Source: Escherichia coli O157:H7 (lineage in GTDB: Bacteria; Pseudomonadota; Gammaproteobacteria; Enterobacterales; Enterobacteriaceae). Taken from it: a stretch of 64,000 bases of DNA. A model generated the notes under the pieces. It was given only the letters and a program-made list of their open reading frames with translations. It was not told the DNA's origin and searched no databases. The stretch lies in the NCBI RefSeq assembly GCF_013167455.1, contig NZ_CP038328.1, one strand, 5' to 3'. Below, one piece after another: positions 11,186-36,750 of this stretch. The translations under genes were made by a program, and so were the position numbers. Positions within the stretch are counted from its first letter, which is position 1; each line of letters begins with the position of its first letter.

Positions 11186-11296
11186 TAAAAAGTATTCAGA
11201 ATCAGGCCGGGGCGTATCGCGCTCCGTAAACACGGTCGTACATCCAGCCGGTAGCCTGGTTCCTTGCATTGAGTGATGTACGGAGTTTATAGAGCA

Positions 11297-17895: not shown

Positions 17896-18672
17896 ATGTC
17901 CGAAACAAAAAATGAACTTGAAGACCTGCTGGAAAAAGCAGCAACCGAACCGGCGCACCGCCCGGCCTTTTTCCGTACTCTACTGGAATCCACCGTCTGG
18001 GTGCCTGGTACGGCGGCGCAGGGCGAGGCTGTGGTTGAAGATAGCGCGCTTGATTTACAGCACTGGGAAAAAGAAGACGGCACCAGCGTCATTCCTTTTT
18101 TTACCTCGTTAGAAGCACTTCAACAGGCGGTTGAAGACGAACAGGCATTTGTCGTAATGCCCGTTCGCACATTGTTTGAGATGACCCTTGGCGAAACGCT
18201 CTTCCTTAATGCCAAACTGCCGACCGGTAAAGAATTTATGCCGCGTGAAATCAGTTTGTTGATTGGTGAAGAGGGAAATCCGCTGAGCAGCCAGGAAATC
18301 CTGGAAGGCGGTGAATCGCTGATATTATCGGAAGTCGCAGAGCCGCCAGCACAAATGATTGATTCACTCACCACCTTATTTAAAACCATTAAGCCTGTGA
18401 AGCGTGCTTTTATTTGTTCAATTAAAGAGAACGAAGAGGCACAGCCTAATTTACTTATTGGCATTGAAGCCGATGGTGATATCGAAGAAATTATTCAGGT
18501 GGCGGGAAGTGTAGCGACCGATACATTACCTGGCGATGAACCAATCGATATTTGTCAGGTGAAAAAAGGGGAAAAAGGAATTAGCCACTTTATTACCGAA
18601 CATATTGCGCCATTCTATGAACGTCGCTGGGGTGGTTTTTTGCGTGACTTTAAACAGAATCGGATAATCTAA
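17896..18672 (+). CDS. sseB: Protein SseB (enhances serine sensitivity)
   Basis: ORF track frame 17887..18672; start chosen at MSETKNELEDL (258 aa). Confidence 0.88.
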   Translation: MSETKNELEDLLEKAATEPAHRPAFFRTLLESTVWVPGTAAQGEAVVEDSALDLQHWEKEDGTSVIPFFTSLEALQQAVEDEQAFVVMPVRTLFEMTLGETLFLNAKLPTGKEFMPREISLLIGEEGNPLSSQEILEGGESLILSEVAEPPAQMIDSLTTLFKTIKPVKRAFICSIKENEEAQPNLLIGIEADGDIEEIIQVAGSVATDTLPGDEPIDICQVKKGEKGISHFITEHIAPFYERRWGGFLRDFKQNRII

Positions 18673-19000
18673 AATATGCCGCCCCAAAGGGCGGCATTCG
18701 GGCTTACCTGCTGCTCTGAAGGTTGTTAATCACCAGTAAATTGTCGCCGGAGAGACTCCGGTTATTATTTACCTCGGTTAACAGCGCACCAGAAACAATA
18801 AGTACGATACAGAAGCACCGTATCTTCATTGTGCGGTCCATGCGAAGACCGCATCACGACAGCACCACTGGCGATATTGCCGCGATAGCAAGCACTGTGG
18901 GGTGCCTGTATTTACGGTCATGGAACATTCTTTCCTAAAGCCAGCGCCCGTTTGCGAGACGGCGAAAAGGGCCATTAAGAATAATACTCTCATGTTTGAA
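18670..19000 (-). ncRNA. ryfA: Candidate RyfA-type small RNA locus; boundaries and strand approximate
   Basis: 499 bp tail-to-tail sseB-sseA intergenic region; hairpin at 18677..18695 followed by T-run on minus strand; RyfA is recalled to map between sseA and sseB in E. coli. Confidence 0.3.
18705..18830 (-). CDS. Candidate small hydrophobic protein (41 aa), type I toxin-like (TimP-like?)
   Basis: Hand translation of the minus strand gives MKIRCFCIVLIVSGALLTEVNNNRSLSGDNLLVINNLQSSR; hydrophobic N-terminal 20 aa; no Shine-Dalgarno, and a 7 bp stem (tgcggtc/gaccgca) ends 3 nt before the ATG; below the ORF-track size cutoff. Confidence 0.35.
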
Positions 19001-19171: not shown

Positions 19172-20017
19172 TTATTTCAATGGCTCAACCGGTAAATCTG
19201 CCCGCGCGCCCCATTCACTCCATGCGCCGTCGTACAGTTTCACGTTTGGCACATCCAGCGTCGCGAGTGCCAACAAAACCACGGCTGCTGTTACACCAGA
19301 GCCGCAGCTGACGATAATTGGTTTGTCATAGCTGACGCCGCGACCAAAAAATATCGCATCCAGTTCATCGGTCGTTTTTAGTTCGCCTTCGCGCACCAGT
19401 TCCGTCCACGGAACGTTCAATGCACCGGGAATATGTCCGCGACGTAAACCTGGGCGAGGTTCATCAACTTCTGCGTTAAAACGTGCAGCCGGGCGGGCAT
19501 CAATAATTTGCGCCGTATTTTCATGGCTTGCCAATAACACATCGGTTACTTTCACCACTGCTTCAGGATTAAACGCGGCGTTAAACTCTCCTTCCGGCAG
19601 CTCTACTGCACCTTCTTCTAACAACAGATCATCGCGCTGCCAGCCTGCAAGTCCACCCCCCAGAATCGACACTTTCTCTACACCAAAGGTGCGCAGCATC
19701 CACCATGCTCGTGGGGCTGAGAAAAGATTACCTTCGTCATAGACAATCAGGTGCTTATCCTGGTTAACGCCTAATTCACGCATCGCCACGGCGAACGTTT
19801 CCGGGCGCGGCAGCATGTGCGGAAGCGGGGAAGTGTGATCAGAAAGCGCTTCGATATCAAAAAACACTGCGCCGGGAATATGTCCATTCAGATACTCCTG
19901 AGCAACGTTACGATCTTCCTGTCCAGGCGACGCCATGCGGGCATCGATAATCTGAATTTCCGGGTCATCAATATGTTCGGCGAGCCAGTCGGCTCCTACA
20001 AACCATGTCGTGGACAT
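19172..20017 (-). CDS. sseA: 3-mercaptopyruvate sulfurtransferase (tandem rhodanese domains)
   Basis: ORF track frame 19172..20176; start chosen at MSTTWFVGADWL (281 aa); catalytic Cys loop VSCGSGVTA. Confidence 0.9.
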   Translation of the reverse strand: MSTTWFVGADWLAEHIDDPEIQIIDARMASPGQEDRNVAQEYLNGHIPGAVFFDIEALSDHTSPLPHMLPRPETFAVAMRELGVNQDKHLIVYDEGNLFSAPRAWWMLRTFGVEKVSILGGGLAGWQRDDLLLEEGAVELPEGEFNAAFNPEAVVKVTDVLLASHENTAQIIDARPAARFNAEVDEPRPGLRRGHIPGALNVPWTELVREGELKTTDELDAIFFGRGVSYDKPIIVSCGSGVTAAVVLLALATLDVPNVKLYDGAWSEWGARADLPVEPLK

Positions 20018-20223
20018 AGGCATCTCCATTTTTGCCGGGGTTAGGCTAAATTGTCGGATGTTTAGTGAAAAGCGACAAGCAAAAGAGGCTGATTTGGCTG
20101 TCTGAGCCACAATTCTCACTAAAATTCGGATTGTATGGGCGTGATACTGAATTACATAACGTAAATTCTCACGCATAATAATTATTCGACGTTGCTAACG
20201 GGCCATTGTGGCAGGGATGAAAA

Positions 20224-23200
20224 ATGAAAAAGTTACGCGTAGCCGCCTGCATGCTAATGCTGGCGCTGGCAGGGTGCGACAACAACGATAACGCGCCAAC
20301 AGCGGTGAAAAAAGATGCGCCTTCTGAAGTTACTAAAGCGGCCTCTTCAGAAAACGCGAGTTCAGCAAAACTCTCCGCGCCAGAGCGACAAAAACTGGCC
20401 CAACAGAGTGCCGGTAAGGCGCTGACATTGCTGGATCTCTCTGAAGTCCAACTTGATGGTGCAGCCACGCTGGTGCTGACGTTCTCCATCCCTCTCGACC
20501 CGGATCAGGATTTCTCACGCGTTATTCATGTCGTCGATAAAAAAAGCGGCAAAGTGGATGGTGCCTGGGAGCTATCAGATAATCTTAAAGAGCTGCGTTT
20601 ACGCCACCTCGAACCGAAACGTGATTTGATCGTTACAATTGGCAAGGAGGTCAAAGCACTCAACAACGCAACCTTCAGTAAAGATTACGAAAAAACTATA
20701 ACTACCCGCGACATCCAACCCAGTGTCGGTTTTGCCAGCCGTGGTTCGCTGCTGCCTGGTAAAGTCGTTGAAGGGCTGCCGGTAATGGCGCTCAACGTTA
20801 ATAATGTCGATGTTAACTTCTTCCGCGTTAAGCCAGAATCTCTGCCAGCATTCATTAGCCAATGGGAATACCGCAATTCGCTGGCGAACTGGCAGTCAGA
20901 CAAACTGCTGCAGATGGCGGATCTGGTCTACACCGGACGGTTTGATCTCAATCCTGCGCGTAACACCCGTGAAAAATTATTGCTGCCGCTGGGCGATATC
21001 AAACCGCTTCAGCAGGCGGGCGTGTATCTGGCTGTGATGAATCAGGCTGGACGTTACGATTACAGTAATCCCGCGACGCTGTTTACGTTAAGTGATATCG
21101 GCGTTTCAGCTCACCGTTATCACAATCGTCTGGATATCTTTACCCAAAGTCTGGAAAACGGCGCGGCCCAGCAAGGAATTGAAGTCTCTTTATTAAATGA
21201 GAAAGGGCAGACTCTGACTCAGGCAACCAGTGACGCTCAGGGGCATGTGCAGCTGGAAAATGATAAAAACGCCGCATTATTGCTGGCACGTAAAGACGGT
21301 CAGACAACGCTACTCGATTTAAAACTTCCGGCGCTGGACTTAGCAGAATTTAACATTGCTGGCGCGCCAGGCTATAGCAAACAGTTTTTCATGTTTGGCC
21401 CGCGCGATCTTTATCGCCCGGGTGAAACGGTAATCCTCAATGGTTTGCTGCGTGATGCAGACGGTAAAGCGTTGCCCAATCAACCCATCAAGTTAGACGT
21501 GATTAAACCCGATGGGCAGGTACTCAGGAGCGTCGTTAGTCAGCCGGAAAATGGCCTCTACCACTTTACCTGGCCACTCGATAGCAATGCGGCAACCGGT
21601 ATGTGGCATATTCGCGCTAACACGGGCGATAACCAGTATCGGATGTGGGATTTCCACGTCGAAGATTTTATGCCAGAGCGTATGGCGCTGAATCTGACCG
21701 GTGAGAAAACCCCGCTTACGCCGAATGATGAAGTGAAATTCTCCGTGGTGGGATACTACCTGTACGGTGCGCCTGCTAATGGTAATACTTTGCAAGGGCA
21801 ACTTTTCCTGCGCCCACTGCGTGAGGCTGTGTCAGCCTTACCTGGTTTTGAATTCGGCGATATAGCTGCCGAAAACCTTTCCCGCACGCTGGATGAAGTT
21901 CAGTTGACGCTGGATGATAAAGGGCGCGGCGAAGTTTCTACAGAAAGCCAGTGGAAGGAAACGCATTCCCCATTGCAGGTTATTTTCCAGGGCAGTTTGC
22001 TGGAATCGGGCGGTCGCCCGGTGACGCGCCGCGCTGAGCAGGCTATCTGGCCTGCCGATGCATTGCCGGGGATCCGTCCGCAGTTCGCCTCGAAATCGGT
22101 TTACGATTATCGCACTGACAGCACGGTGAAACAGCCCATTGTTGATGAAGGCAGTAACGCCGCTTTTGACATCGTTTATAGCGATGCGCAAGGCGTGAAA
22201 AAAGCCGTGTCGGGCTTGCAGGTGCGCCTGATTCGCGAACGCCGCGATTACTACTGGAACTGGTCAGAAGATGAAGGCTGGCAATCACAGTTTGATCAAA
22301 AAGATCTGATTGAAAATGAACAAACTCTGGATCTGAAAGCGGACGAAACCGGCAAGGTCAGTTTCCCGGTAGAGTGGGGCGCTTATCGTCTGGAAGTCAA
22401 AGCGCCGAATGAAGCGGTCAGTAGTGTTCGTTTTTGGGCTGGCTATAGCTGGCAGGATAATAGCGACGGTAGCGGCGCAGTGCGACCCGACCGTGTCACG
22501 CTGAAACTGGATAAAGCCGGTTATCGCCCTGGCGATACCATTAAGTTGCATATCGCCGCGCCAACGGCGGGTAAAGGTTATGCGATGGTCGAGTCCAGTG
22601 AAGGGCCGCTGTGGTGGCAAGAGATTGATGTTCCGGCTCAAGGGCTGGATCTGACGATTCCGGTCGATAAAACCTGGAATCGTCATGATCTTTATTTGAG
22701 TACGCTGGTGGTGCGTCCTGGCGATAAATCTCGCTCCGCGACGCCAAAACGCGCGGTTGGTGTGTTGCATCTGCCGCTTGGTGATGAAAACCGTCGCCTC
22801 GATCTGGCGCTGGAAACACCAGCAAAAATGCGTCCCAATCAACCATTAACCGTGAAAATTAAAGCCAGCACTAAAAATGGCGAGAAGCCTAAACAGGTGA
22901 ATGTGCTGGTGTCTGCCGTTGATAGTGGTGTGCTGAATATTACTGACTACGTCACGCCAGATCCGTGGCAGGCGTTCTTTGGTCAGAAACGCTATGGCGC
23001 AGACATTTACGATATTTACGGTCAGGTTATTGAAGGTCAGGGGCGTCTGGCAGCTCTGCGTTTCGGTGGCGATGGTGATGAGCTGAAACGTGGTGGTAAA
23101 CCGCCGGTCAATCACGTCAATATTGTCGCGCAGCAGGCGCTGCCGGTAACGCTCAACGAACAGGGCGAAGGCTCGGTTACACTGCCGATTGGCGATTTTA

Positions 23201-25185
23201 ACGGTGAATTGCGCGTCATGGCGCAAGCCTGGACGGCAGATGAATTCGGTAGCAACGAAAGCAAAGTGATAGTTGCCGCACCGGTGATTGCTGAACTGAA
23301 CATGCCGCGCTTTATGGCGAGTGGCGATAACTCGCGTCTGACGCTGGATATCACTAATCTTACCGATAAACCGCAAAAACTGAACGTTGCCCTGACCGCC
23401 AGTGGTTTGCTTGAACTGGTCAGCGATTCACCCGCAGCCGTTGAATTAGCGCCAGGTGTGCGTACTACGCTGTTTATCCCGGTGCGAGCATTGCCGGGTT
23501 ATGGCGATGGAGAAATTCAGGCCACCATTAGCGGGTTAGCGTTACCGGGTGAAACCGTTGCCGATCAGCATAAGCAGTGGAAAATCGGCGTCCGTCCGGC
23601 GTTCCCGGCACAAACGGTTAATTACGGTACGGCGTTACAGCCTGGTGAGACATGGGCGATTCCGGCGGATGGATTGCAAAACTTCTCGCCTGTTACGCTG
23701 GAAGGGCAATTGTTGTTGAGCGGCAAACCACCGCTGAACATCGCACGTTATATCAAAGAGTTAAAAGCGTATCCGTACGGCTGTCTTGAGCAAACCGCCA
23801 GCGGCCTGTTCCCGTCACTTTATACCAACGCAGCCCAACTGCAGGCGTTGGGCATCAAAGGCGACAGTGATGAGAAACGCCGTGCATCGGTCGATATCGG
23901 CATTTCCCGTTTGCTGCAAATGCAACGTGATAACGGCGGCTTTGCGCTGTGGGATAAAAACGGTGACGAAGAGTACTGGCTGACGGCTTACGTGATGGAT
24001 TTCCTGGTCCGCGCAGGCGAACAGGGTTACAGCGTGCCGACAGACGCCATTAACCGGGGTAATGAGCGTCTGCTGCGCTATTTACAAGATCCGGGCATGA
24101 TGTCGATCCCGTACGCGGATAATCTCAAAGCCAGTAAATTCGCCGTACAGTCTTACGCTGCGCTGGTGTTGGCCCGTCAGCAAAAGGCTCCGCTGGGTGC
24201 GCTGCGTGAAATCTGGGAGCATCGTGCAGATGCCGCTTCTGGTTTACCGCTGCTGCAACTTGGCGTTGCGCTGAAAACCATGGGTGATGCGACGCGTGAT
24301 GAAGAAGCGATTGCGCTGGCGCTAAAAACGCCGCGTAATAGTGATGAGCGGATATGGCTGGGTGATTACGGTAGTCCACTGCGCGACAACGCGTTGATGC
24401 TCTCCTTGCTGGAAGAGAACAAACTGCTACCCGATGAGCAGTACTCCCTGCTGAACACACTTTCGCAGCAGGCGTTTGGTGAACGCTGGCTATCGACGCA
24501 GGAAAGTAACGCGTTGTTCCTGGCTGCCCGTACGATTCAGGATTTACCAGGTAAATGGCAGGCGCAAACCTCTTTCTCAGCTGAGCCGCTGACAGGCGAG
24601 AAAGCGCAAAACAGCAATCTGAATAGCGATCAACTTGCCACCTTGCAGGTGACCAACAGTGGCGAGCAGCCGTTATGGCTGCGTGTGGATGCCAGCGGTT
24701 ATCCGCAATCCGCACCTTTACCGGCGAACAATGTGCTGCAAATTGAGCGTCATATTCTTGGTACTGATGGTAAGAGCAAATCGCTGGACTCGTTACGTAG
24801 CGGCGATCTGGTGCTGGTCTGGTTGCAGGTAAAAGCTAGTAACAGCGTGCCGGATGCGTTAGTCGTGGATCTGCTGCCTGCGGGTCTGGAACTGGAAAAC
24901 CAGAATCTGGCGAACGGTAGCGCCAGCCTGGAGCAAAGTGGTGGCGAAGTGCAGAACTTACTGAACCAGATGCAGCAGGCGAGTATTAAGCACATTGAGT
25001 TCCGTGACGATCGCTTTGTGGCGGCGGTTGCCGTTGATGAATACCAACCGGTAACGCTGGTGTATCTGGCGCGGGCGGTGACGCCGGGAACGTATCAGGT
25101 ACCGCAACCGATGGTGGAATCAATGTATGTTCCCCAATGGCGGGCGACCGGCGCGGCTGAAGATTTGCTGATTGTCAGACCGTAA
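20224..25185 (+). CDS. yfhM: Alpha-2-macroglobulin family lipoprotein
   Basis: 1653 aa ORF; lipobox LALAGC at N-terminus; thioester motif GCLEQ present (YPYGCLEQTASG). Confidence 0.93.
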   Translation: MKKLRVAACMLMLALAGCDNNDNAPTAVKKDAPSEVTKAASSENASSAKLSAPERQKLAQQSAGKALTLLDLSEVQLDGAATLVLTFSIPLDPDQDFSRVIHVVDKKSGKVDGAWELSDNLKELRLRHLEPKRDLIVTIGKEVKALNNATFSKDYEKTITTRDIQPSVGFASRGSLLPGKVVEGLPVMALNVNNVDVNFFRVKPESLPAFISQWEYRNSLANWQSDKLLQMADLVYTGRFDLNPARNTREKLLLPLGDIKPLQQAGVYLAVMNQAGRYDYSNPATLFTLSDIGVSAHRYHNRLDIFTQSLENGAAQQGIEVSLLNEKGQTLTQATSDAQGHVQLENDKNAALLLARKDGQTTLLDLKLPALDLAEFNIAGAPGYSKQFFMFGPRDLYRPGETVILNGLLRDADGKALPNQPIKLDVIKPDGQVLRSVVSQPENGLYHFTWPLDSNAATGMWHIRANTGDNQYRMWDFHVEDFMPERMALNLTGEKTPLTPNDEVKFSVVGYYLYGAPANGNTLQGQLFLRPLREAVSALPGFEFGDIAAENLSRTLDEVQLTLDDKGRGEVSTESQWKETHSPLQVIFQGSLLESGGRPVTRRAEQAIWPADALPGIRPQFASKSVYDYRTDSTVKQPIVDEGSNAAFDIVYSDAQGVKKAVSGLQVRLIRERRDYYWNWSEDEGWQSQFDQKDLIENEQTLDLKADETGKVSFPVEWGAYRLEVKAPNEAVSSVRFWAGYSWQDNSDGSGAVRPDRVTLKLDKAGYRPGDTIKLHIAAPTAGKGYAMVESSEGPLWWQEIDVPAQGLDLTIPVDKTWNRHDLYLSTLVVRPGDKSRSATPKRAVGVLHLPLGDENRRLDLALETPAKMRPNQPLTVKIKASTKNGEKPKQVNVLVSAVDSGVLNITDYVTPDPWQAFFGQKRYGADIYDIYGQVIEGQGRLAALRFGGDGDELKRGGKPPVNHVNIVAQQALPVTLNEQGEGSVTLPIGDFNGELRVMAQAWTADEFGSNESKVIVAAPVIAELNMPRFMASGDNSRLTLDITNLTDKPQKLNVALTASGLLELVSDSPAAVELAPGVRTTLFIPVRALPGYGDGEIQATISGLALPGETVADQHKQWKIGVRPAFPAQTVNYGTALQPGETWAIPADGLQNFSPVTLEGQLLLSGKPPLNIARYIKELKAYPYGCLEQTASGLFPSLYTNAAQLQALGIKGDSDEKRRASVDIGISRLLQMQRDNGGFALWDKNGDEEYWLTAYVMDFLVRAGEQGYSVPTDAINRGNERLLRYLQDPGMMSIPYADNLKASKFAVQSYAALVLARQQKAPLGALREIWEHRADAASGLPLLQLGVALKTMGDATRDEEAIALALKTPRNSDERIWLGDYGSPLRDNALMLSLLEENKLLPDEQYSLLNTLSQQAFGERWLSTQESNALFLAARTIQDLPGKWQAQTSFSAEPLTGEKAQNSNLNSDQLATLQVTNSGEQPLWLRVDASGYPQSAPLPANNVLQIERHILGTDGKSKSLDSLRSGDLVLVWLQVKASNSVPDALVVDLLPAGLELENQNLANGSASLEQSGGEVQNLLNQMQQASIKHIEFRDDRFVAAVAVDEYQPVTLVYLARAVTPGTYQVPQPMVESMYVPQWRATGAAEDLLIVRP

Positions 25186-27498
25186 ATGCCTCGCTTGTTA
25201 ACCAAACGCGGCTGCTGGATAACGCTGGCAGCTGCGCCATTTCTCCTTTTTCTTGCAGCGTGGGGAGCAGATAAACTCTGGCCTCTACCGCTGCATGAAG
25301 TCAATCCCGCACGAGTGGTCGTGGCGCAGGATGGTACGCCGCTCTGGCGCTTCGCCGATGCTGACGGCATCTGGCGTTATCCTGTAACAATCGAAGATGT
25401 TTCTCCACGTTACCTTGAAGCGCTGATCAATTATGAAGATCGCTGGTTCTGGAAGCATCCTGGGGTGAATCCATTCTCGGTGGCGCGCGCAGCATGGCAA
25501 GATCTCACTTCGGGACGGGTTATTTCCGGTGGCAGCACGCTCACTATGCAGGTTGCTCGTCTGCTTGATCCTCACCCCAAAACATTTGGCGGCAAAATTC
25601 GCCAGCTCTGGCGCGCGTTGCAACTGGAATGGCATCTGTCTAAGCGTGAAATTCTGACCTTGTATCTTAACCGCGCTCCGTTTGGCGGTACGTTGCAGGG
25701 GATCGGTGCGGCAAGTTGGGCTTATCTCGGAAAGTCGCCTGCGAATTTAAGCTATTCCGAGGCGGCAATGCTGGCGGTTTTGCCGCAAGCGCCCAGCCGT
25801 CTTCGCCCGGATCGTTGGCCGGAGCGTGCCGAAGTCGCGCGTAATAAAGTGCTCGAACGGATGGCCGTGCAAGGTGTGTGGTCCCGTGAGCAGGTAAAAG
25901 AGTCAAGGGAAGAACCCATCTGGCTGGCACCCCGACAAATGCCGCAACTGGCACCGCTGTTTTCGCGCATGATGCTCGGTAAAAGCAAAAGCGACAAAAT
26001 CGTTACTACGCTGGATGCCGGTCTTCAACGACGTCTGGAAGAACTGGCGCAAAACTGGAAAGGACGATTACCACCGCGCAGCTCACTGGCGATGATCGTG
26101 GTTGATCATACCGATATGCGTGTTCGCGGCTGGGTGGGTTCGGTTGATCTCAACGATGATTCACGCTTTGGTCATGTTGATATGGTCAATGCGATCCGAT
26201 CGCCAGGATCGGTGCTCAAACCGTTTGTTTACGGTCTGGCGCTGGATGAAGGATTGATCCACCCGGCATCACTGCTGCAAGACGTCCCCCGGCGTACCGG
26301 TGATTACCGACCTGGCAACTTTGACAGCGGTTTTCATGGCCCGATCAGCATGAGCGAGGCGCTGGTGCGCTCGCTGAATTTACCTGCTGTGCAGGTGCTG
26401 GAAGCCTATGGACCGAAACGGTTTGCGGCAAAGTTACGCAATGTTGGATTGCCGTTATATTTGCCCAACGGTGCTGCGCCGAATCTTTCGCTCATTCTCG
26501 GCGGCGCTGGTGCGAAACTGGAAGATATGGCGGCAGCGTATACCGCGTTTGCTCGCCACGGCAAGGCAGGCAAATTGCGCTTACAGCCTGACGATCCGCT
26601 GCTTGAACGGCCTTTAATGTCGTCGGGAGCGGCGTGGATCATTCGCCGGATTATGGCTGATGAAGCGCTACCCTTGCCGGATGGTGCCTTGCCGCGCGTC
26701 GCCCCACTGGCATGGAAAACGGGCACCAGCTATGGCTATCGTGACGCCTGGGCGATTGGGGTTAACGCTCGCTATGTCATTGGGATCTGGACTGGCAGAC
26801 CGGACGGCACGCCCGTTGTTGGTCAGTTTGGTTTTGCCAGCGCCGTACCATTGTTGAATCAGGTCAATAATATCTTACTGTCGCGCAGTGCTAATCTGCC
26901 GGAAGACCCGCGCCCGAACTCAGTCACTCGTGGCGTTATTTGCTGGCCGGGCGGACAGTCTTTGCCGGAAGGTGACGGTAACTGTCGCCGCCGCCTGGCA
27001 ACCTGGCTGCTGGACGGGAGTCAGCCGCCAACTCTATTACTGCCGGAGCAGGAAGGCATTAATGGCATTCGTTTCCCCATCTGGCTGGATGAAAATGGCA
27101 AACGTGTTGCCGCTGATTGCCCGCAAGCGCGACAAGAAATGATAAATGTCTGGCCGCTACCGCTGGAACCCTGGTTGCCCGCATCAGAACGTCGCGCTGT
27201 GCGCTTACCACCGGCCTCGACAATTTGCCCGCCATACGGTCACGATGCCCAGCTCCCGCTGCAGCTGACAGGCGTTCGCGATGGCGAGATTATTAAACGT
27301 TTACCGGGCGCAGCGGAAGCGACTTTGCCGTTGCAATCAAGTGGAGGGGCAGGTGAACGCTGGTGGTTTCTGAATGGCGAACCGTTAACTGAACGCGGGC
27401 GCAACGTGACCCTGCATTTGACGGATAAAGGTGATTATCAATTGCTGGTGATGGATGACGTAGGGCAAATCGCGTCAGTACATTTTTCATTTCAGTGA
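25186..27498 (+). CDS. pbpC: Penicillin-binding protein 1C (bifunctional transglycosylase/transpeptidase)
   Basis: 770 aa ORF starting immediately after yfhM stop (taaATG); glycosyltransferase motifs EDRWFW and RQLWRALQLE. Confidence 0.93.
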   Translation: MPRLLTKRGCWITLAAAPFLLFLAAWGADKLWPLPLHEVNPARVVVAQDGTPLWRFADADGIWRYPVTIEDVSPRYLEALINYEDRWFWKHPGVNPFSVARAAWQDLTSGRVISGGSTLTMQVARLLDPHPKTFGGKIRQLWRALQLEWHLSKREILTLYLNRAPFGGTLQGIGAASWAYLGKSPANLSYSEAAMLAVLPQAPSRLRPDRWPERAEVARNKVLERMAVQGVWSREQVKESREEPIWLAPRQMPQLAPLFSRMMLGKSKSDKIVTTLDAGLQRRLEELAQNWKGRLPPRSSLAMIVVDHTDMRVRGWVGSVDLNDDSRFGHVDMVNAIRSPGSVLKPFVYGLALDEGLIHPASLLQDVPRRTGDYRPGNFDSGFHGPISMSEALVRSLNLPAVQVLEAYGPKRFAAKLRNVGLPLYLPNGAAPNLSLILGGAGAKLEDMAAAYTAFARHGKAGKLRLQPDDPLLERPLMSSGAAWIIRRIMADEALPLPDGALPRVAPLAWKTGTSYGYRDAWAIGVNARYVIGIWTGRPDGTPVVGQFGFASAVPLLNQVNNILLSRSANLPEDPRPNSVTRGVICWPGGQSLPEGDGNCRRRLATWLLDGSQPPTLLLPEQEGINGIRFPIWLDENGKRVAADCPQARQEMINVWPLPLEPWLPASERRAVRLPPASTICPPYGHDAQLPLQLTGVRDGEIIKRLPGAAEATLPLQSSGGAGERWWFLNGEPLTERGRNVTLHLTDKGDYQLLVMDDVGQIASVHFSFQ

Positions 27499-27592
27499 AA
27501 TATACAAAATATTTATTAATCTAATTATGGTATTTATATTTGGAATGCATTAATAATTTAATAATCTCACGTTTTTTTAAACGACTAATTAT

Positions 27593-27606
27593 TTGATTGT
27601 TATCAG
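27593..27606 (+). promoter_or_regulatory. FNR-like box upstream of the accessory molybdoenzyme operon
   Basis: TTGATtgttATCAg matches the FNR consensus TTGAT-N4-ATCAA at 9 of 10 positions, about 56 bp upstream of the ATG at 27662, inside an AT-rich intergenic region. Confidence 0.5.
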
Positions 27607-27661
27607 CATTGTTCTCGAATAAATACGTGAATATTTATTTTTTCATTTTCGGGAACGCAAG

Positions 27662-30043
27662 ATGGATACGCCAGACGAAAAGGAACGCATTACATTTCCG
27701 CAAGTATCACGACGTAGTTTTTTACAAGCGACTTCCGCGCTTATCACTTTGCCTTTTATTTCTTCTACCGCAAAGGCGCAATCCCCAGATGCGTCGCCAG
27801 AAGTTACAGCTCCAGTAGCTGATAAAGTCGTGCCCACCTGTAGCACATTTGACTGCGGTGGTAAGTGCGATATTCGGGCGCATATGCGCGACGGCGTGGT
27901 GACGCAAATTACCACGCTTCCCGATAACGAATTGGATCCACAAATGCCGATTATGCGCGCCTGTGTTCGTGGTCGCGGCTATCGTAAATTTGTTTATCAT
28001 CCAGACCGTTTGAAATATCCGATGAAGCGGGTAGGTAAACGAGGCGAGGGTAAATTTGAGCGTATCTCATGGGATGAGGCGACGACCTTAATTGCCGATA
28101 ACCTGAAAAGGATCACGCAACAATATGGCCCAGCTTCACGTTATGTCCATGTCGGGACGGCTGTTTCTGGTGGAACATTTTCTGGCGATGCGATGGCGCG
28201 TCGGCTGTTAAATTTAACCGGTGGTTATCTTGAATATTATCACTCAGTTAGTCTGGGTAATACTGCGGCGGCCACGCCTTACACGTATGGCGTGGCCGCG
28301 AGCGGTAACTCGATGGATACTCTTCTGGATACCAAACTGGTGATTCTCTGGGGGCATAACCCAACGGAAACCATATTCGGTCACACCAATTACTATTTTC
28401 AAAAAATGAAGCAAAACGGTACACGTTTTATCGTGGTGGATCCGCGCTATTCCGACACCGTATCTTCACTTGCCGATCAGTGGATCCCGCTGTTGCCGAC
28501 CACGGACAATGCGTTGATGGACGCGATGATGTACGTCATTATCAGCGAGAATCTCCACGATAAGACATTTATCGACACATATACTCTCGGTTTTGATGAA
28601 AACTCCATGCCGGAAGGCGTACCAGCCAACGAATCGTTGGTTGCCTACCTTTTTGGCGCAAAAGATGGGATACACAAAACGCCGGAATGGGCAGAAAAAA
28701 TTACCCACGTTCCAGCACAATCCATTCGTCAACTGGCACGCGATTACGCCACTACAAAACCCGCAGCGTTGATTCAGGGATGGGGGCCACAGCGACATAT
28801 TTGCGGCGAACGCACCGCCCGAGGTTCAACTTTACTGGCCTCGATTACCGGTAACGTCGGCATCAAAGGTGGCTGGGCGGCAGGTTACGGCGGTAGTTCT
28901 AATCGTAAATTCTGCGTTGGACCAGATATGCCAGAAAATCCGGTACAAGCGAAAATCTCGATTATGAACTGGATGCAGGCGGCGGATGATGCTTCTAAAG
29001 TTACGCCGCAAGATGGGCTTAAAGGTGTCGATAAACTCGACAGTAATATCCGCCTGCTGTTCTCACTGGCAGGTAATTATCTGGCGAACCAGAACCCGGA
29101 CGTCCACCAGGCCGCGAAGCTCCTTGAAGACGAATCTAAAATAGAATTCATCGTACTCAGCGATCTGTTCATGACTCCGAGCGCGAAATATGCCGATGTG
29201 TTGCTGCCGGAAACCAGCTTTATGGAACGCTGGAATATCGGCGAAACATGGGGAACTGCGAGCTATCTTATTCTGTCAGAAAAACCGATTGAGCCGGATT
29301 TTGAACGTCGCACCGATTATGACTGGTTGCGTGACGTGGCGAAAAAACTGGGTGTCGAAGCCGAGTTCAGTCAAGGACGTGATGAGAAGCAATGGATCGA
29401 GCATATCTGGGAGCAAACTCGTCTGGCGATGCCGGATGAAAATTTGCCGGACTTCGCAACCCTGCAAAAAACACGTCGACATCTTTTCAAAAGCGCGCCG
29501 CACATCGCTTTCGAAGCAAATATTCGCGATCCGCAGAATAATCCTTTCCCGACGCCTTCCGGCAAAATTGAGATCTTCTCTAAGCGTCTTTTTGATATGC
29601 AAGATCCAGAAATTCCCGCGCTTTCGCACTATGTCCCTGCCTTTGAAGGGCCAGAAGATAAACTGACGGCGAAATACCCGTTGCAGCTCATCACCTGGAA
29701 AGGGAAAAACCGTGCTAATTCCACCCAGTATGCTAACCCGTGGCTGCAAGAAGTTCAGACGCAAAAACTCTGGCTGAATCCGCAAGATGCAAAACAGCGC
29801 GGGATTAGCGAAGGAGATAGCGTAAAAATTTATAACGATCGTGGTGTGAGCATTATCCCGGTGGAAATAATCCCCCGTATCATCCCTGGCGTAGTTGCTA
29901 TGCAGGCGGGGGCATGGTGGCAACCGGATGCACAAGGTATCGATCGCGGAGGCTGTGCCAATGTACTGAGTTCGACCCGCATTACGGCGCTGGCGAAAGG
30001 GAATTCGCATCAAACAATGCTGGTGGAGGTTGAGAAAGCATGA
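27662..30043 (+). CDS. Tat-exported Mo-bisMGD oxidoreductase catalytic subunit, DMSO reductase (DmsA/YnfE) family; substrate unknown
   Basis: 793 aa ORF; twin-arginine signal SRRSFLQ...AKAQ; N-terminal Cys cluster CSTFDCGGKCD; block ACVRGRGYRKFVYHPDRLKYPMKRVGKRGEGKFERISWDEA nearly matches DmsA as recalled; ATGA overlap with next gene. Confidence 0.85.
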   Translation: MDTPDEKERITFPQVSRRSFLQATSALITLPFISSTAKAQSPDASPEVTAPVADKVVPTCSTFDCGGKCDIRAHMRDGVVTQITTLPDNELDPQMPIMRACVRGRGYRKFVYHPDRLKYPMKRVGKRGEGKFERISWDEATTLIADNLKRITQQYGPASRYVHVGTAVSGGTFSGDAMARRLLNLTGGYLEYYHSVSLGNTAAATPYTYGVAASGNSMDTLLDTKLVILWGHNPTETIFGHTNYYFQKMKQNGTRFIVVDPRYSDTVSSLADQWIPLLPTTDNALMDAMMYVIISENLHDKTFIDTYTLGFDENSMPEGVPANESLVAYLFGAKDGIHKTPEWAEKITHVPAQSIRQLARDYATTKPAALIQGWGPQRHICGERTARGSTLLASITGNVGIKGGWAAGYGGSSNRKFCVGPDMPENPVQAKISIMNWMQAADDASKVTPQDGLKGVDKLDSNIRLLFSLAGNYLANQNPDVHQAAKLLEDESKIEFIVLSDLFMTPSAKYADVLLPETSFMERWNIGETWGTASYLILSEKPIEPDFERRTDYDWLRDVAKKLGVEAEFSQGRDEKQWIEHIWEQTRLAMPDENLPDFATLQKTRRHLFKSAPHIAFEANIRDPQNNPFPTPSGKIEIFSKRLFDMQDPEIPALSHYVPAFEGPEDKLTAKYPLQLITWKGKNRANSTQYANPWLQEVQTQKLWLNPQDAKQRGISEGDSVKIYNDRGVSIIPVEIIPRIIPGVVAMQAGAWWQPDAQGIDRGGCANVLSSTRITALAKGNSHQTMLVEVEKA

Positions 30044-30669
30044 GCCAATTTAAAGAATTTGCATCTGTCAGCGACAAACAATTAGGGTTCTTTATTGACT
30101 CTTCGCGTTGTTCGGGCTGTAAAGCGTGTCAGGTGGCCTGTAAAGACAAAAACAACCTTGAGGTTGGGCGACGTTTTCGCCGCGTGTATGAAGTGAACGG
30201 AGGTGGCTTCATCGCCACTGGAGAGGGCGGTGTGAGTCATAATGTCTTTGCTTATACCCTTTCTGTTTCCTGTAACCATTGCGCGGATCCGATCTGTACC
30301 AAAAATTGCCCGACGATGGCGATGCATAAGCGTCCCGGAGACGGTATTGTGCGCGTGAATACTGATAAGTGCGTCGGTTGCGGTTACTGCGCCTGGTCCT
30401 GTCCTTACGGCGCACCACAAATGAATGAGCAGACCGGGCAGATGTCGAAATGCGATTTCTGTATTGATCTGCAAGCTAAAGGAGAACAACCCATTTGCGT
30501 GGCAACGTGCCCGTTGGGGGCGATTAAGTTCGGCCCTATTGATGAGTTGCGTGAAAAGTATGGCGATGTCAGTGATGTGAAAGGTTTACCTGATTCGTCG
30601 ATTACGCAGCCAAATCTGGTGATTAAACCGCATCAGGGCGCGGAAAAGGAGGCGTCACATCATGCATGA
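30040..30669 (+). CDS. Four-cluster [4Fe-4S] electron-transfer subunit, DmsB/YnfG family
   Basis: 209 aa ORF with four ferredoxin Cys motifs (CSGCKACQVAC, CNHCADPICTKNCP, CVGCGYCAWSCP, CDFC...CVATCP); GGAGG Shine-Dalgarno; overlaps neighbours. Confidence 0.85.
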   Translation: MSQFKEFASVSDKQLGFFIDSSRCSGCKACQVACKDKNNLEVGRRFRRVYEVNGGGFIATGEGGVSHNVFAYTLSVSCNHCADPICTKNCPTMAMHKRPGDGIVRVNTDKCVGCGYCAWSCPYGAPQMNEQTGQMSKCDFCIDLQAKGEQPICVATCPLGAIKFGPIDELREKYGDVSDVKGLPDSSITQPNLVIKPHQGAEKEASHHA

Positions 30670-31483
30670 ATTACCGTTAATGGCTTTTACGCTGTTGTTA
30701 CAGGCATCGGTCGGTATGACGTTGTGGCTGGCGTTTCTTCATCGTCATATTTTAATCACCTCCAGCGCCCGCCCGGTTATGCGGCCGCCATTACTGTTGG
30801 CTTTTTTGGCAGGTGCCGTAGGGTTACTGATTTCTACCTTACACCTGGGTTATCCACTTAATGCGATGCATGCGCTGAGCCACTTTTCCAGTTCATGGCT
30901 GAGTCGGGAAATTATCTTTGGTGCGCTGTATCTGGCGCTATTGGGTTTATCCACATTACTGGTCATGTTACGCAAAGGCGGCTGGCAACTCCTGCTTATG
31001 CTAGCGGCAGTGGTCGGGATTGTTGATGTTTTCTGCATGGCGCAAGTTTACATCCATACGTCGATTATCACCTGGCAGCATTACAACACGCTGATTATGT
31101 TCTTAGGTACAGTGGGAATTCTCGGTTCAGCGCTGGTAGCAGTGTTTCGTATTAGCGGAATTTTGCCGCAGATTGATGCCCTGCGTAATGGATGCGTGTT
31201 GGTGATCGCTCTCCTGGTTCTGCTGCGTTTGTTGGTTCAGCCGTTGTGGATAGGGGATTTAACGGCAAATGCGATGCAGATAGCCACATTGCCACATGCG
31301 CCATTAGCGATGCTGGGACAGTTAAAACCCATACTGACACTAAGCTGGGGAATTTCCGTCATTGGGATGATGTTCTTTGCTGTCGGTGGTTGTAAAAAGA
31401 ATATCCCGGCGGCGTTATTCGGTAGCGTAATGCTAGTGGGGAGTGAAGTTATGCTGCGTTTTGTCTTTTTTAGTATCGGCTAA
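30662..31483 (+). CDS. Integral membrane anchor subunit, DmsC/YnfH family
   Basis: 273 aa ORF with about 8 hydrophobic segments; AGGAGG Shine-Dalgarno; 8 bp overlap with upstream gene and TAATG overlap with downstream gene. Confidence 0.75.
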   Translation: MHELPLMAFTLLLQASVGMTLWLAFLHRHILITSSARPVMRPPLLLAFLAGAVGLLISTLHLGYPLNAMHALSHFSSSWLSREIIFGALYLALLGLSTLLVMLRKGGWQLLLMLAAVVGIVDVFCMAQVYIHTSIITWQHYNTLIMFLGTVGILGSALVAVFRISGILPQIDALRNGCVLVIALLVLLRLLVQPLWIGDLTANAMQIATLPHAPLAMLGQLKPILTLSWGISVIGMMFFAVGGCKKNIPAALFGSVMLVGSEVMLRFVFFSIG

Positions 31484-32337
31484 TGTTAAGTCATAACATA
31501 ACGATTGGCGCGGAATGCGCGCGCCAACGCTTTCGTTTTGCAACATGTCATGCCTGTGTCGAGGCTTGCCCGGCACAGGCGCTAACGCTGACAGAAGAGG
31601 GCATAGCGGTCGACGCGGAACAATGTATTGATTGTGCGGTTTGCCAGTTTATTTGTCCGCAAGAGGCTATTCGTGGCGTTAATTCCCCTTTACGTTATTT
31701 TTGCAATCACACCCTGGTCGCACCTTTCACCACTATTGCGCCGACGCTGGAAGAACTTTTGCTATGGCATAAAGAGCAGGGGATCACAGCGATCGCGATT
31801 GATCTGAGTCAGGCGAAGGCATGGGAGCGCGCATTATTGCTGTTAAACGAATGCTTACGGCAATATGGCGAGGAAGGCTGGTCTGTGGTATCTCCACATA
31901 CCAGTGAGGTGAATGTTTCCCGGCGTCGTTTGTTCCATGTGCAGCGTGCGGATGTTCAGATGACACAAATACAACCAGGATTACGTCGGTTACATTATTT
32001 ATGGCCCCAGATTAGTGATGCTCGCCCGATGATGGATCCTCAAAAGTGTCAGCTTTGCGGTGCATGCTGGCGGGCCTGCGAGCAACAGGTCTTTTCGCTT
32101 AACGAAGGCCATTTACAAATAAATGATGCCTTGTGTAACGGATGCCAAAATTGTATTGCTGTTTGTTTTCATCAGGCAATGACCGTTGAATTGACGATTC
32201 TACCGGCAAAAATTGTGAATCTTCATGCTAATCGCAAAGTCTGTAAAACCTGTCAAAAATCCTTTCTTACTTTTCAGCAAAATGCGCAAAATTGTCTTTA
32301 TTGCCAACGTCATCGTTATGGGATGAGAACACCATAA
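31483..32337 (+). CDS. Cysteine-rich polyferredoxin-like protein (NapF/iron-sulfur maturation-like?), function unknown
   Basis: 284 aa ORF, no signal peptide; motifs CHACVEACP, CIDCAVCQFICP, CQLCGACWRACE, CNGCQNCIAVC, plus C-terminal CKTC-x13-CLYC; translationally coupled to the membrane subunit. Confidence 0.7.
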   Translation: MLSHNITIGAECARQRFRFATCHACVEACPAQALTLTEEGIAVDAEQCIDCAVCQFICPQEAIRGVNSPLRYFCNHTLVAPFTTIAPTLEELLLWHKEQGITAIAIDLSQAKAWERALLLLNECLRQYGEEGWSVVSPHTSEVNVSRRRLFHVQRADVQMTQIQPGLRRLHYLWPQISDARPMMDPQKCQLCGACWRACEQQVFSLNEGHLQINDALCNGCQNCIAVCFHQAMTVELTILPAKIVNLHANRKVCKTCQKSFLTFQQNAQNCLYCQRHRYGMRTP

Positions 32338-32477
32338 AAGTCGAGTTGTTGCTAAAACTCATTTTATTTTAAAAAAATGTTACCTTCATCAATAGTCAAC
32401 GGCTCTGTTGCTCATTATAATCCGCGCCATCTCGTACGCTGGTACAGACAACAACAGAACAATTTACAGAGGTAAAA

Positions 32478-36656: not shown

Positions 36657-36750
36657 TAACGTGATGGGAAGCGCCTCGCTTCCCGTGTATGATTGAACCC
36701 GCATGGCTCCCGAAACATTGAGGGAAGCGTTGAGGGTTCATTTTTATATT
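36657..36750 (+). ncRNA. sroE: Possible SroE sRNA (3'UTR-derived, ispG-hisS intergenic region)
   Basis: Assigned by position only: SroE is recalled to lie between ispG (gcpE) and hisS; hairpin gggaagcgcctcgcttccc is present. Confidence 0.3.

Follow-up and report, generated by a model that had tools for sequence, protein, structure and literature searches.

The analysed window, a stretch of 64,000 nucleotides, is E. coli O157:H7-like and carries the genes yfhM (20224-25185) and pbpC (25186-27498) on the plus strand. The product of yfhM (1653 aa) is ECAM, a bacterial type I alpha-2-macroglobulin and inner-membrane lipoprotein. The pbpC product (770 aa) is identified by Pfam and by the RefSeq annotation as PBP1C, a class A penicillin-binding protein. 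The yfhM stop codon TAA (25183-25185) abuts the pbpC start in a TAAATG junction (25183-25188, plus strand; letters gaccgTAAATGcct). A preliminary description had placed the pbpC ATG one base past the yfhM stop, which is confirmed in that the ATG at 25186 takes the very next base, leaving 0 intergenic nt. Both genes have the same boundaries in a RefSeq record that is 100% identical over window positions 20000-27700, and the RefSeq annotation of K-12 gives identical gene boundaries and the same abutting junction. The locus was found in 5425 of 5426 complete E. coli genomes. Taken as a whole, it is best explained as the known yfhM-pbpC pair of E. coli in an O157:H7-type allele, to which we assign a probability of about 0.7. 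The yfhM/pbpC pairing and the reactivity of the ECAM thioester with methylamine and proteases are described in the literature (PMC4498604, PMC3328433, PMC3735191, PMC9156758, PMC7554673). The ECAM thioester, its methylamine reactivity, protease trapping, the structures and the link to pbpC all appeared in print from 2004 to 2015, so the overall finding is already known.

YfhM matches the crystallised E. coli ECAM (K-12/BL21; PDB 4RTD, 4ZIQ, 5A42) with E=0 and about 99% identity, and also the Salmonella A2M structure (SaA2M, PDB 4U48; E=0); these two are the closest known systems. Its Pfam domains are bMG1, A2M_bMG2, bMG3, MG2, bMG5, bMG6, A2M_BRD, A2M, TED_complement, CUB_A2MG and bMG10. The lipoprotein signal peptide MKKLRVAACMLMLALAG, followed by C, spans 20224-20280 in the translation (plus strand), with the lipobox LAGC, Cys18 at 20275-20277 and Asp19 at position +2. 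Asp at +2 is an inner-membrane retention signal. The lipobox Cys of ECAM is conserved (PMC3735191) and the protein is anchored in the inner membrane (PMC4498604). The bait-region segment Phe947-Asn963 (23062-23112, plus strand) is the same as in K-12 and includes Arg956, Gly958 and Asn963, whose role in activation was derived from ECAM's structure after protease cleavage (PMC4498604). YfhM and K-12 ECAM are the same gene, with the same length, lipobox, bait and domain order, and differ only by 16 allelic substitutions (V52A, V66A, K501N, S766G, R804P, V969A, D1007E, T1036N, G1359D, S1385P, T1408S, Q1455P, V1472A, S1477T, D1481E and M1488V). None of them lies in CLEQ, in the pocket residues Tyr1183, Tyr1185, Met1634 and Tyr1635 or in the bait segment, and none falls on a residue with an assigned function. 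Every residue named in the ECAM structure paper (PMC4498604) was found in this YfhM.

The thioester signature YPYGCLEQTASG (23770-23805, plus strand; residues 1183-1194) occurs once in YfhM. Its CLEQ at 23782-23793 provides Cys1187 and Gln1190, as in ECAM, and is the sole CxEQ of the protein. Tyr1183 and Tyr1185 are thioester pocket residues, and the residue numbering agrees with that of PMC4498604. The same work assigns to Met1634-Tyr1635 of the C-terminal MG domain (25123-25128, plus strand) the shielding of the native-state thioester; both residues are invariant in an alignment of the query with 18 homologues, down to 39% identity. The thioester Cys, Glu and Gln are likewise invariant in these 19 sequences, as are the Y, P, Y, G, T and S of the motif. 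CLEQ is present in 79 of 79 loci of the Enterobacterales survey where the motif was readable. Thus the earlier statement that the GCLEQ thioester is retained stands. The prediction of a functional protease trap is also supported, because it is settled by experiment elsewhere for the 99% identical ECAM; for the O157 allele, trapping is predicted from its sequence. Reactivity of ECAM with methylamine and proteases is reported in PMC3328433 (2012), which also cites Doan and Gettins 2008 for it.

The thioester-domain segment of YfhM aligns with the thioester domain of complement C4. ECAM shares with eukaryotic alpha-2-macroglobulin, complement C3-C4 and CD109 a CxEQ in a helical thioester domain, a ring of MG domains and activation by bait cleavage (PMC4498604). 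In contrast to these proteins, ECAM is monomeric, lipid-anchored in the periplasm and has two extra N-terminal MG domains; the thioester domain itself supplies two of the four residues of its thioester pocket, and very large substrates are the only ones whose access ECAM hinders (PMC4498604, PMC9156758). The features found here and published work show YfhM to be ECAM, a monomeric alpha-2-macroglobulin that a lipid on Cys18 anchors in the inner membrane. When a protease cuts the bait region, the thioester domain is released from its contact with the C-terminal MG domain. The exposed Cys1187-Gln1190 thioester then bonds the protease covalently, so that large substrates are kept out of its reach.

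PbpC belongs to the class A peptidoglycan synthases and has the Pfam domains Transgly, Transpeptidase and BiPBP_C. Its glycosyltransferase and transpeptidase motifs are intact (EDRWFWKHPG, residues 84-93; SVLK at 342, SLN at 396 and KTG at 511). It agrees with K-12 PBP1C in length, in these three domains and in all catalytic motifs. The two differ by 11 substitutions, five of them in the last seven residues, where an O157-type island joins pbpC.

The relation between the two genes was then considered. Junctions of 0 nt or less occur in 8 of 41 same-strand neighbouring gene pairs of the window and are thus common in themselves. Nevertheless, the tight yfhM-pbpC junction is conserved, with a gap of 0 nt in 19 and of 1 nt in 22 of 78 evaluable Enterobacterales loci. 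No Shine-Dalgarno sequence was detected in the 22 nt upstream of pbpC, and all 41 related species whose junction measures 0-1 nt likewise lack one. The predicted anti-Shine-Dalgarno duplex of pbpC has +0.4 kcal/mol, the second weakest of 56 genes (window median -5.85). Its median is +0.6 kcal/mol in species with a 0-1 nt gap versus -3.8 in those with wider gaps, which tend to have a Shine-Dalgarno sequence. Because the codons abut, pbpC has no Shine-Dalgarno sequence of its own and both traits are conserved in 41 species, co-transcription and termination-reinitiation coupling of yfhM and pbpC are likely. An ATG that touches the yfhM stop and is preceded by no Shine-Dalgarno sequence also suggests, at somewhat better than even odds, that most PbpC would be translated by ribosomes that have just terminated on yfhM. 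Termination-reinitiation is known from pairs of genes whose stop and start codons abut or overlap, for example at the junctions of the trp operon. The yfhM-pbpC junction resembles these pairs in the contact of stop and start and in the missing Shine-Dalgarno sequence of the downstream gene. It differs from the commoner ATGA or TAATG overlaps in that its codons abut, and coupling is here deduced from the junction sequence.

A promoter in the sseA-yfhM spacer would drive the co-transcription of both genes. A candidate sigma-70 promoter (20151-20179, plus strand; ATTACA, 17 nt, CATAAT) lies upstream of yfhM. It is a consensus match only, and since sigma-70-like matches are no more numerous in the region than in shuffled sequence, it serves as a lead, not as evidence. 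Genomic SELEX is reported to have given an in vitro peak of RpoE holoenzyme binding within yfhM (PMC5493296), and through such a site some pbpC transcription could bypass the yfhM promoter. This peak, the frequency of tight junctions in the window and the spacers of tens to hundreds of nt, or of about 0.5-1.1 kb, between the two genes in other lineages would all suit a largely yfhM-independent pbpC, with an internal promoter, ordinary de novo initiation and abutting codons that reflect compact layout and no coupling. We consider this improbable. De novo initiation should be poor on a start that lacks Shine-Dalgarno-like sequence in all 41 tight-junction species, and sigma-70-like matches are at chance level. 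The plus strand of yfhM contains no sigma-E consensus match with fewer than three mismatches, and matches in the window do not exceed shuffle frequency. Moreover, SELEX places this in vitro site near the 5' part of the gene, and a transcript starting there would still carry most of yfhM. Coupling of the two genes is the preferred reading, and the earlier claim of obligate co-expression is partly supported. The word obligate, however, exceeds the evidence and was not borne out: the spacer measures 3 to 239 nt in other Enterobacterales, more distant relatives have the genes 0.5-1.1 kb apart or have no pbpC beside the macroglobulin gene, and one sequenced E. coli strain, NCTC9100, has an intact yfhM and a deletion of pbpC-ndk.

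Inside pbpC, codons 8-17 can form an RNA hairpin (25207-25236, plus strand) of 12 bp with a dG of about -21 kcal/mol. It starts 21 nt into the gene, which puts its first paired base at +22 counted from the ATG. The 5' arm (25207-25218, CGCGGCTGCTGG) and the 3' arm (25225-25236, CTGGCAGCTGCG) enclose a loop at 25219-25224. By stability, the hairpin falls into the top 0.23% of the 40-nt windows sampled and is the second most stable fold within the first 100 nt of 56 genes. In an alignment of 42 species, 94.7% of cells were paired, compared to a shuffle value of 77.5% (none of 500 shuffles reached the observed figure), and 82 cells were changed on both sides compared to 29.6, although these shuffle-based statistics are, by the tool's own warning, inflated by sequence relatedness. 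Nine of the 12 pairs are changed on both sides, and one pair occurs as six different standard pair types. Controls with a shifted 3' partner column reached a covariation score of at most 0.176, compared to 0.467 for the hairpin. Some of the compensatory pairs (GGC/GCU, UCC/GGA, CGC/GCG, ACC/GGU, CCC/GGG and AAA/UUU) change the amino acid, and the exchanges pass from one amino-acid class to another (Gly/Ala, Ser/Gly, Thr/Gly, Pro/Gly, Lys/Phe). The G-U pairs make the hairpin specific for the sense strand.

A covariance model, tested on genera left out of its building, placed the hairpin at the same site in Atlantibacter, Cedecea and Pantoea (E 7e-6 to 7e-3) and gave no second match elsewhere in the window. 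In Cedecea the sequence at the site is unrelated, yet a stem of 14-18 bp with -29 to -33 kcal/mol is formed. These data bear on whether the hairpin is a non-functional by-product of codons for an Arg/Trp-rich cytoplasmic tail followed by an Ala/Leu-rich membrane helix. GC-rich coding sequence readily forms hairpins, the four innermost pairs (GCUGG/CUGGC) do not vary and specify a conserved Trp and Leu-Ala, and the inflation of the shuffle statistics would also suit a by-product. Such an origin is nevertheless very unlikely, given the two-sided changes, the low scores of the shifted-partner controls, the class-crossing compensations that have no apparent reason at the protein level and the stem retained in Cedecea. 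We are confident that the hairpin is a real, selected structure. No Rfam family matches it and it is unmentioned in the literature, as far as papers were searchable; it is apparently the only unreported feature of the locus.

The position of the hairpin allows two readings of its role. The distance from start to stem is fixed in all 42 aligned species, without indels and with seven poorly conserved intervening codons. The stem thereby lies just beyond the footprint of a ribosome with its P site on the pbpC ATG, which would suit a role in translation. In one form of this reading the hairpin would hold post-termination ribosomes at TAAATG and favour reinitiation; in another it would limit de novo initiation or early elongation and keep PbpC scarce. 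The missing Shine-Dalgarno sequence fits as well, as do stems 16-25 nt past the inferred start in Cedecea, Buttiauxella, Pantoea and Atlantibacter. In Yersinia the pbpC Shine-Dalgarno sequence sits within the 3' arm of the intergenic hairpin, a classic arrangement for translational coupling. However, a fixed distance to the start is also a fixed distance to the stop and fits both readings equally, and there is no experimental precedent for such a role in the yfhM-pbpC operon. Most lineages with a wide gap have their hairpin beside the macroglobulin stop, upstream of the pbpC start, where it cannot be a barrier downstream of the start. We rate the translational reading as rather unlikely.

As a second reading, which we tentatively prefer at somewhat below even odds, the hairpin would act on the 3' end of the yfhM message and leave YfhM in excess over PbpC. 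A strong spacer hairpin begins about 4-17 nt past the macroglobulin stop in the wide-gap lineages examined, except for Rouxiella and one metagenomic Enterobacterales genome, both with weak folds; thus the constant feature is a hairpin just after the yfhM stop. The hairpin would either attenuate transcription weakly and in a translation-sensitive manner or stand in the way of 3' exonucleases. Intra-operon stem-loops are known to give unequal expression as partial intrinsic terminators or as hairpins that protect 3' ends, for which the REP elements between malE and malF are an example. Like these, the pbpC hairpin is stable, GC-rich and placed directly after the upstream cistron and before most of the downstream one, and a run of 5-7 U comes after it in Klebsiella, Pantoea and Mangrovibacter. 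Unlike REP elements, it is single-copy and, in Enterobacteriaceae, lies inside codons 8-17 of the downstream gene, where amino-acid-changing compensation keeps it. Unlike partial intrinsic terminators, the E. coli hairpin has no canonical U tract (4 U in 8 nt, beginning 3 nt past the stem). The U content past the stem tracks the xUx codons of the transmembrane helix encoded there, and codon usage as the source of the U tract favours the translational reading. Term-seq supplements, as far as searchable, list no 3' end within or close to pbpC or yfhM; low expression or incomplete listings may account for this. In favour of the second reading, terminators are efficient when they lie in the initial 100 bp of a coding region, and how efficient they are depends on how far away the preceding stop is (PMC4824070).

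In summary, the conserved pbpC hairpin points to unequal, attenuated expression of yfhM and pbpC rather than to locked expression. Through it, YfhM, a stoichiometric trap, would be made in excess over the enzyme PbpC, and the hairpin may limit the amount of PbpC relative to YfhM.

The yfhM open reading frame spans 20224-25185 on the + strand, encodes 1653 aa and ends with a TAA at 25183-25185. The pbpC frame occupies 25186-27498 (+), encodes 770 aa and begins with an ATG at 25186-25188. The boundary reads ...AGACCG TAA ATG CCT... with a spacer of 0 nt, which confirms the preliminary description, where the pbpC ATG had been placed directly behind the yfhM stop. RefSeq names the genes yfhM (alpha2-macroglobulin) and pbpC (peptidoglycan glycosyltransferase PbpC), with boundaries that agree with the open reading frames. 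Elsewhere in the window, hda (58564-59265, +) is annotated with a CTG start, apparently the unusual one already known for hda. Positions 20000-27700 are 100% identical to E. coli O157:H7-type chromosomes, and the yfhM-pbpC locus was found in 5425 of 5426 complete E. coli genomes. PbpC contains the Pfam domains Transgly, Transpeptidase and BiPBP_C. Its motifs EDRWFWKHPG (at 84), SVLK (at 342), SLN (at 396) and KTG (at 511) correspond to the EDxxFxxHxG, SxxK, SxN and KTG signatures of class A PBPs, and the C-terminal domain is of the PBP1C type, as in the PBP1C subfamily.

Compared with K-12, there are 16 substitutions in YfhM and 11 in PbpC. In K-12 the distance between pbpC and ndk is 148 nt, whereas in the O157 window a four-gene cluster of the DMSO/selenate-reductase family (A, B and anchor subunits plus a 4Fe-4S protein) lies between them, at approximately 27480-32349 (+). 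At least 80% of this segment is present in only 379 of the 5426 complete genomes. Its left boundary falls within ~20 nt of the pbpC 3' end, and therefore five of the 11 PbpC substitutions are located within the last seven residues.

The thioester region of YfhM reads YPYGCLEQTASG at residues 1183-1194 (nt 23770-23805), with Cys1187 and Gln1190 encoded within 23782-23793. CxEQ occurs once in the protein. The signature is thus retained as had been read from the sequence, as CLEQ at 1187-1190 and with the same numbering as in the structure of ECAM, the crystallised E. coli YfhM. In an alignment of 19 macroglobulin sequences (the query and 18 homologues, down to 39% identity), C, E and Q were all invariant. 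The wider patterns Y-P-Y-G-C-x-E-Q-T-x-S and E-x-M-Y-x-P, the latter in the C-terminal MG domain, were invariant as well, as were the thioester pocket residues Tyr1183, Tyr1185, Met1634 and Tyr1635. CLEQ was found in 79 of 79 readable Enterobacterales loci, and the thioester-domain segment could also be aligned to the thioester domain of complement C4. YfhM could be aligned along its entire length with ECAM (4RTD, 4ZIQ and 5A42) and with the Salmonella A2M (4U48), at E=0. Eleven Pfam domains scored above the curated cut-offs in the expected order, comprising the MG1-MG10 set with bait-region, thioester and CUB domains. The lipobox LAGC, with Cys18 followed by Asp19, is predicted to anchor the protein to the inner membrane; a lipobox has been reported for ECAM (PMC3735191). 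CxEQ, domain order, lipobox, hydrophobic pocket and adjacency to pbpC are the features of a bacterial type I alpha-2-macroglobulin. None of the 16 changes relative to K-12 affects Cys18/Asp19, the Phe947-Asn963 bait segment, the thioester motif or the pocket residues; bait segment, thioester and pocket are taken here as identified in the paper on the protease-cleaved ECAM structure (PMC4498604).

The prediction that YfhM is a functional protease trap was correct and had already been established experimentally on K-12/BL21 ECAM. Thioester formation was demonstrated for the K-12/BL21 protein (PMC3328433, PMC4498604), and with 99% identity to it the O157 allele should likewise form a methylamine-sensitive thioester and covalent protease complexes. 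The methylamine assay that had been proposed is published for the K-12 and BL21 proteins. The thioester mechanism and the reactivity with methylamine and proteases go back to Doan & Gettins 2008 (cited in PMC3328433) and Neves et al. 2012, and structures of ECAM followed in 2014-2015. The macroglobulin-pbpC pairing and the "inhibit protease, repair wall" hypothesis are credited by later papers to Budd et al. 2004. Pairing, mechanism and structures are covered in PMC4498604, PMC3328433, PMC3735191, PMC9156758, PMC6131605 and PMC7554673. Pairing and a working thioester are both already known and are textbook knowledge for yfhM-pbpC.

The junction was then considered as a site of translational coupling. 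A spacing of 0 nt or less is unremarkable alone, as it occurs in 8 of the 41 same-strand neighbouring pairs in the window. The pbpC start is unusual in its upstream sequence: the duplex of the 16S 3' end with positions -22 to -4 has a predicted energy of +0.4 kcal/mol, the second weakest of 56 window genes (median -5.85). We surveyed 80 Enterobacterales loci, one genome per species, of which 78 were evaluable. In all 78, pbpC lay directly downstream of the macroglobulin gene. The stop-start gap was 0 nt in 19 loci (Escherichia, Citrobacter, Salmonella, Klebsiella, Raoultella and an Enterobacter sp.), 1 nt in 22 (Enterobacter, Kluyvera, Kosakonia, Leclercia and others), 2-13 nt in 19, 14-100 nt in 17 and 239 nt in one. 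No SD-like sequence (Shine-Dalgarno, SD) was found upstream of pbpC in any of the 41 loci with a gap of 0-1 nt (median +0.6 kcal/mol), and loci with a gap of at least 14 nt tend toward an SD (median -3.8, down to -7.8). A stop and start no more than a few nt apart and a downstream start that lacks a ribosome-binding site, the marks of a coupled pair, are present in O157 and likewise in 41 of 41 related species. Because pbpC has no SD, and because both this absence and the 0-1 nt gap are conserved, functional coupling is likely. The dependence of SD on gap length is the pattern that termination-reinitiation would be predicted to leave in the sequences.

The claim of obligate co-expression therefore stood in part. 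Coupling is plausible from the 0-nt gap and the missing SD, both conserved, but "obligate" was overstated given the variable spacing and the situation in E. coli NCTC9100. The stop-start spacing is lineage-specific, and in more distant relatives pbpC is 0.5-1.1 kb away or non-adjacent. In NCTC9100 (locus L003, 6061-6236) an intact, K-12-type yfhM is followed by a deletion that extends from pbpC nt 20 through ndk. This deletion removes the whole of PBP1C together with an RNA hairpin at pbpC codons 8-17; thus yfhM can persist without pbpC. Also against "obligate" is an in vitro binding site of RpoE holoenzyme inside yfhM, flanked by pbpC and sseA, in a genomic SELEX study (PMC5493296). A search for an internal sigma-E promoter in yfhM gave no support: the best + strand match had 3 mismatches, and 49 matches across the window compare with 52.8 in shuffles. 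The SELEX site maps to 2649866 in older K-12 coordinates, which we take to lie in the 5' part of yfhM, at an estimated window position of ~20650-21000. At 38334-38361 (+), inside yfgM and upstream of bamB, lies the window's closest match to the sigma-E consensus (GGAACTT, 16 nt, ACAAA), with one mismatch. This site may represent a bamB promoter, with sigma-E matches across the window being at chance.

Folding of the junction region was stable, and the greater part of this stability came from a single 12-bp stem-loop at 25207-25236 (+), in pbpC codons 8-17, CGCGGCUGCUGG-AUAACG-CUGGCAGCUGCG, with a dG of about -21 kcal/mol. Only 0.23% of sampled + strand 40-nt windows in the 64 kb were as stable, and of the 56 genes only one has a more stable hairpin in its first 100 nt. 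A longer hairpin enclosing TAAATG (25138-25200, +), with 'AAAU' in an internal loop, was tested as well and rejected as a conserved element: it was not statistically robust, and RNAalifold gave no common fold for this stretch across 42 species. Its z-score was -2.97 in a 140-nt frame, due mostly to the downstream hairpin, and only -0.54 in a -70..+40 frame.

The conservation of the 12-bp stem was evaluated in an alignment of pbpC 5' ends from 42 Enterobacteriaceae species. Standard pairs were present in 94.7% of the cells, compared with 77.5% in column shuffles, none of which (0 of 500) reached the observed value. Nine of the 12 stem pairs were changed on both sides, in 82 cells versus 29.6 in shuffles. 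The covariation score was 0.467 as against 0.152 in shuffles and at most 0.176 with shifted 3' partner columns, and RNAalifold agreed with the covarying stem. The exchanges run through different amino acids. At codons 10 and 16, E. coli has GGC/GCU (Gly/Ala), Enterobacter UCC/GGA (Ser/Gly), Klebsiella CGC/GCG (Arg/Ala), Kosakonia ACC/GGU (Thr/Gly) and Kluyvera CCC/GGG (Pro/Gly), and codons 9 and 17 alternate between CGC/GCG and AAA/UUU. Compensation across amino acids argues that RNA pairing constrains the PbpC protein sequence. The structure is one of the sense RNA, since two G-U pairs that hardly vary would turn into A-C mismatches on the opposite strand. All 12 stem pairs are kept in K-12.

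A covariance model built from this alignment hit exactly one site in the 64-kb window; the hairpin is thus not a repeated REP-type element. Outside its training set, the model also matched the corresponding position at the pbpC 5' end in Atlantibacter, Cedecea and Pantoea (E 7e-6 to 7e-3). In Cedecea and relatives, stems of 14-18 bp (-29 to -33 kcal/mol) occupy the same place with unrelated sequence. Rfam 15 gave no match near the junction at gathering thresholds and none up to E=10 in 25000-25400. Rfam matches elsewhere in the window are ryfA (18671-18975, -), with the small toxin gene timP inside it at 18704-18829, the iscRS stability element (11186-11295, +) and sroE (36656-36747, +), all of which one would expect in this part of the E. 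coli chromosome. In the searchable literature, no paper was found that connects a terminator, attenuator or stem-loop with pbpC or yfhM. The hairpin is a modest regulatory feature that has apparently gone undescribed so far.

Across lineages, the most uniform feature of the hairpin is its position just 3' of the macroglobulin stop. Where the genes abut, the stem starts 21-22 nt past this stop. Serratia, Yersinia, Winslowiella, Erwinia, Photorhabdus, Xenorhabdus and Providencia have hairpins in the spacer that begin within ~4-17 nt of the stop; as exceptions, Rouxiella and one metagenomic Enterobacterales genome gave no more than weak folds. Strong spacer hairpins of 11-17 bp were seen in Serratia (L057), Yersinia (L068 and L070) and Photorhabdus, Providencia and Xenorhabdus (L071-L085), and several of these are followed by U-rich sequence. 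A U run follows the stem, in the manner of an intrinsic terminator, in Klebsiella (AUUUUUUU), Pantoea (U7), Mangrovibacter (U5) and one Providencia, and 8 of the 42 aligned species pass a threshold of 5 U in 8 nt after the stem. Beyond Enterobacterales, five metagenomic loci (39-51% identity) gave a mixed picture and are too few to generalise. L089 has a 4-nt overlap of the two genes, a hairpin of -27.6 kcal/mol at pbpC +13 and the thioester motif CAEQ; L091 has a 4-nt overlap and a weaker hairpin. In L088 and L093, pbpC is found 1.1 kb and 0.5 kb away, respectively, past REP-like palindromes and small ORFs, and L087 has no pbpC and a CSEQ thioester. An apparent fusion of an A2M C-terminus with a transglycosylase in a metagenomic cluster protein (P0041) contained frameshift-like low-complexity stretches and was set aside as probably an assembly or gene-calling artefact.

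A terminator would consist of a GC-rich stem-loop with a U-rich tract directly 3' of the stem. The E. coli hairpin has the former, and the latter was not found behind it (CCAUUUCU). The E. coli sequence contains 4 U in 8, from the third or fourth nucleotide on, and this U content tracks the xUx codon periodicity of a transmembrane helix. Scans for sigma-70 promoters and terminators over 19900-27800 gave counts at chance and did not flag the hairpin. A canonical terminator in E. coli was therefore rejected, and for want of the U tract the element is not classed as one. The Term-seq supplements of PMC7815308 and PMC12207403, which may be incomplete, contain no entry for pbpC, yfhM or 26471xx-26473xx; the operon is weakly expressed.

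We favour a role at the RNA 3' end, in which the hairpin forms or protects the end of a yfhM-only RNA and so lowers PbpC relative to YfhM; we give this a probability of roughly 40%. It is suggested by the post-stop position across lineages, by the U runs in some genera and by reporter work in which terminators were active within the initial 100 bp of a coding sequence, with an efficiency that varied with the nearness of the preceding stop codon and hence of the ribosome (PMC4824070). An excess of YfhM over PbpC would suit a stoichiometric suicide trap that is paired with an enzyme. More speculatively, the hairpin might be an intra-operon attenuator or 3'-end element that was absorbed into pbpC and kept by compensatory amino-acid changes. 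Its effect would then depend on reinitiation at TAAATG behind RNA polymerase, and it would set the YfhM:PBP1C ratio, perhaps tuned under envelope stress.

The main rival places the hairpin in translation, where it could keep ribosomes at TAAATG after termination or hold back initiation. In toeprinting, the leading edge of an initiating ribosome is at ~ +15 to +17. The first paired base is at +22 from the ATG in 42 of 42 species, a few nucleotides past this edge. In the Yersinia spacer hairpin the pbpC SD (AAAGGGGAG) is located within the 3' arm, which is a classic coupling device. We regard this role as possible, though somewhat less likely than the one at the RNA 3' end. The 3'-end role and the translation role are compatible and do not exclude each other.

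In summary, the gene pairing and the thioester themselves add nothing new, and it is the regulatory detail that could matter. As amino acids covary so that the base pairs of the hairpin are preserved, it offers a clean case of an RNA structure constraining a protein. A pbpC start without SD at the yfhM stop and a covarying hairpin 21 nt into pbpC provide a mutable handle on the balance of YfhM and PBP1C. The same two features allow one to ask whether this balance shifts in the host or under envelope stress.
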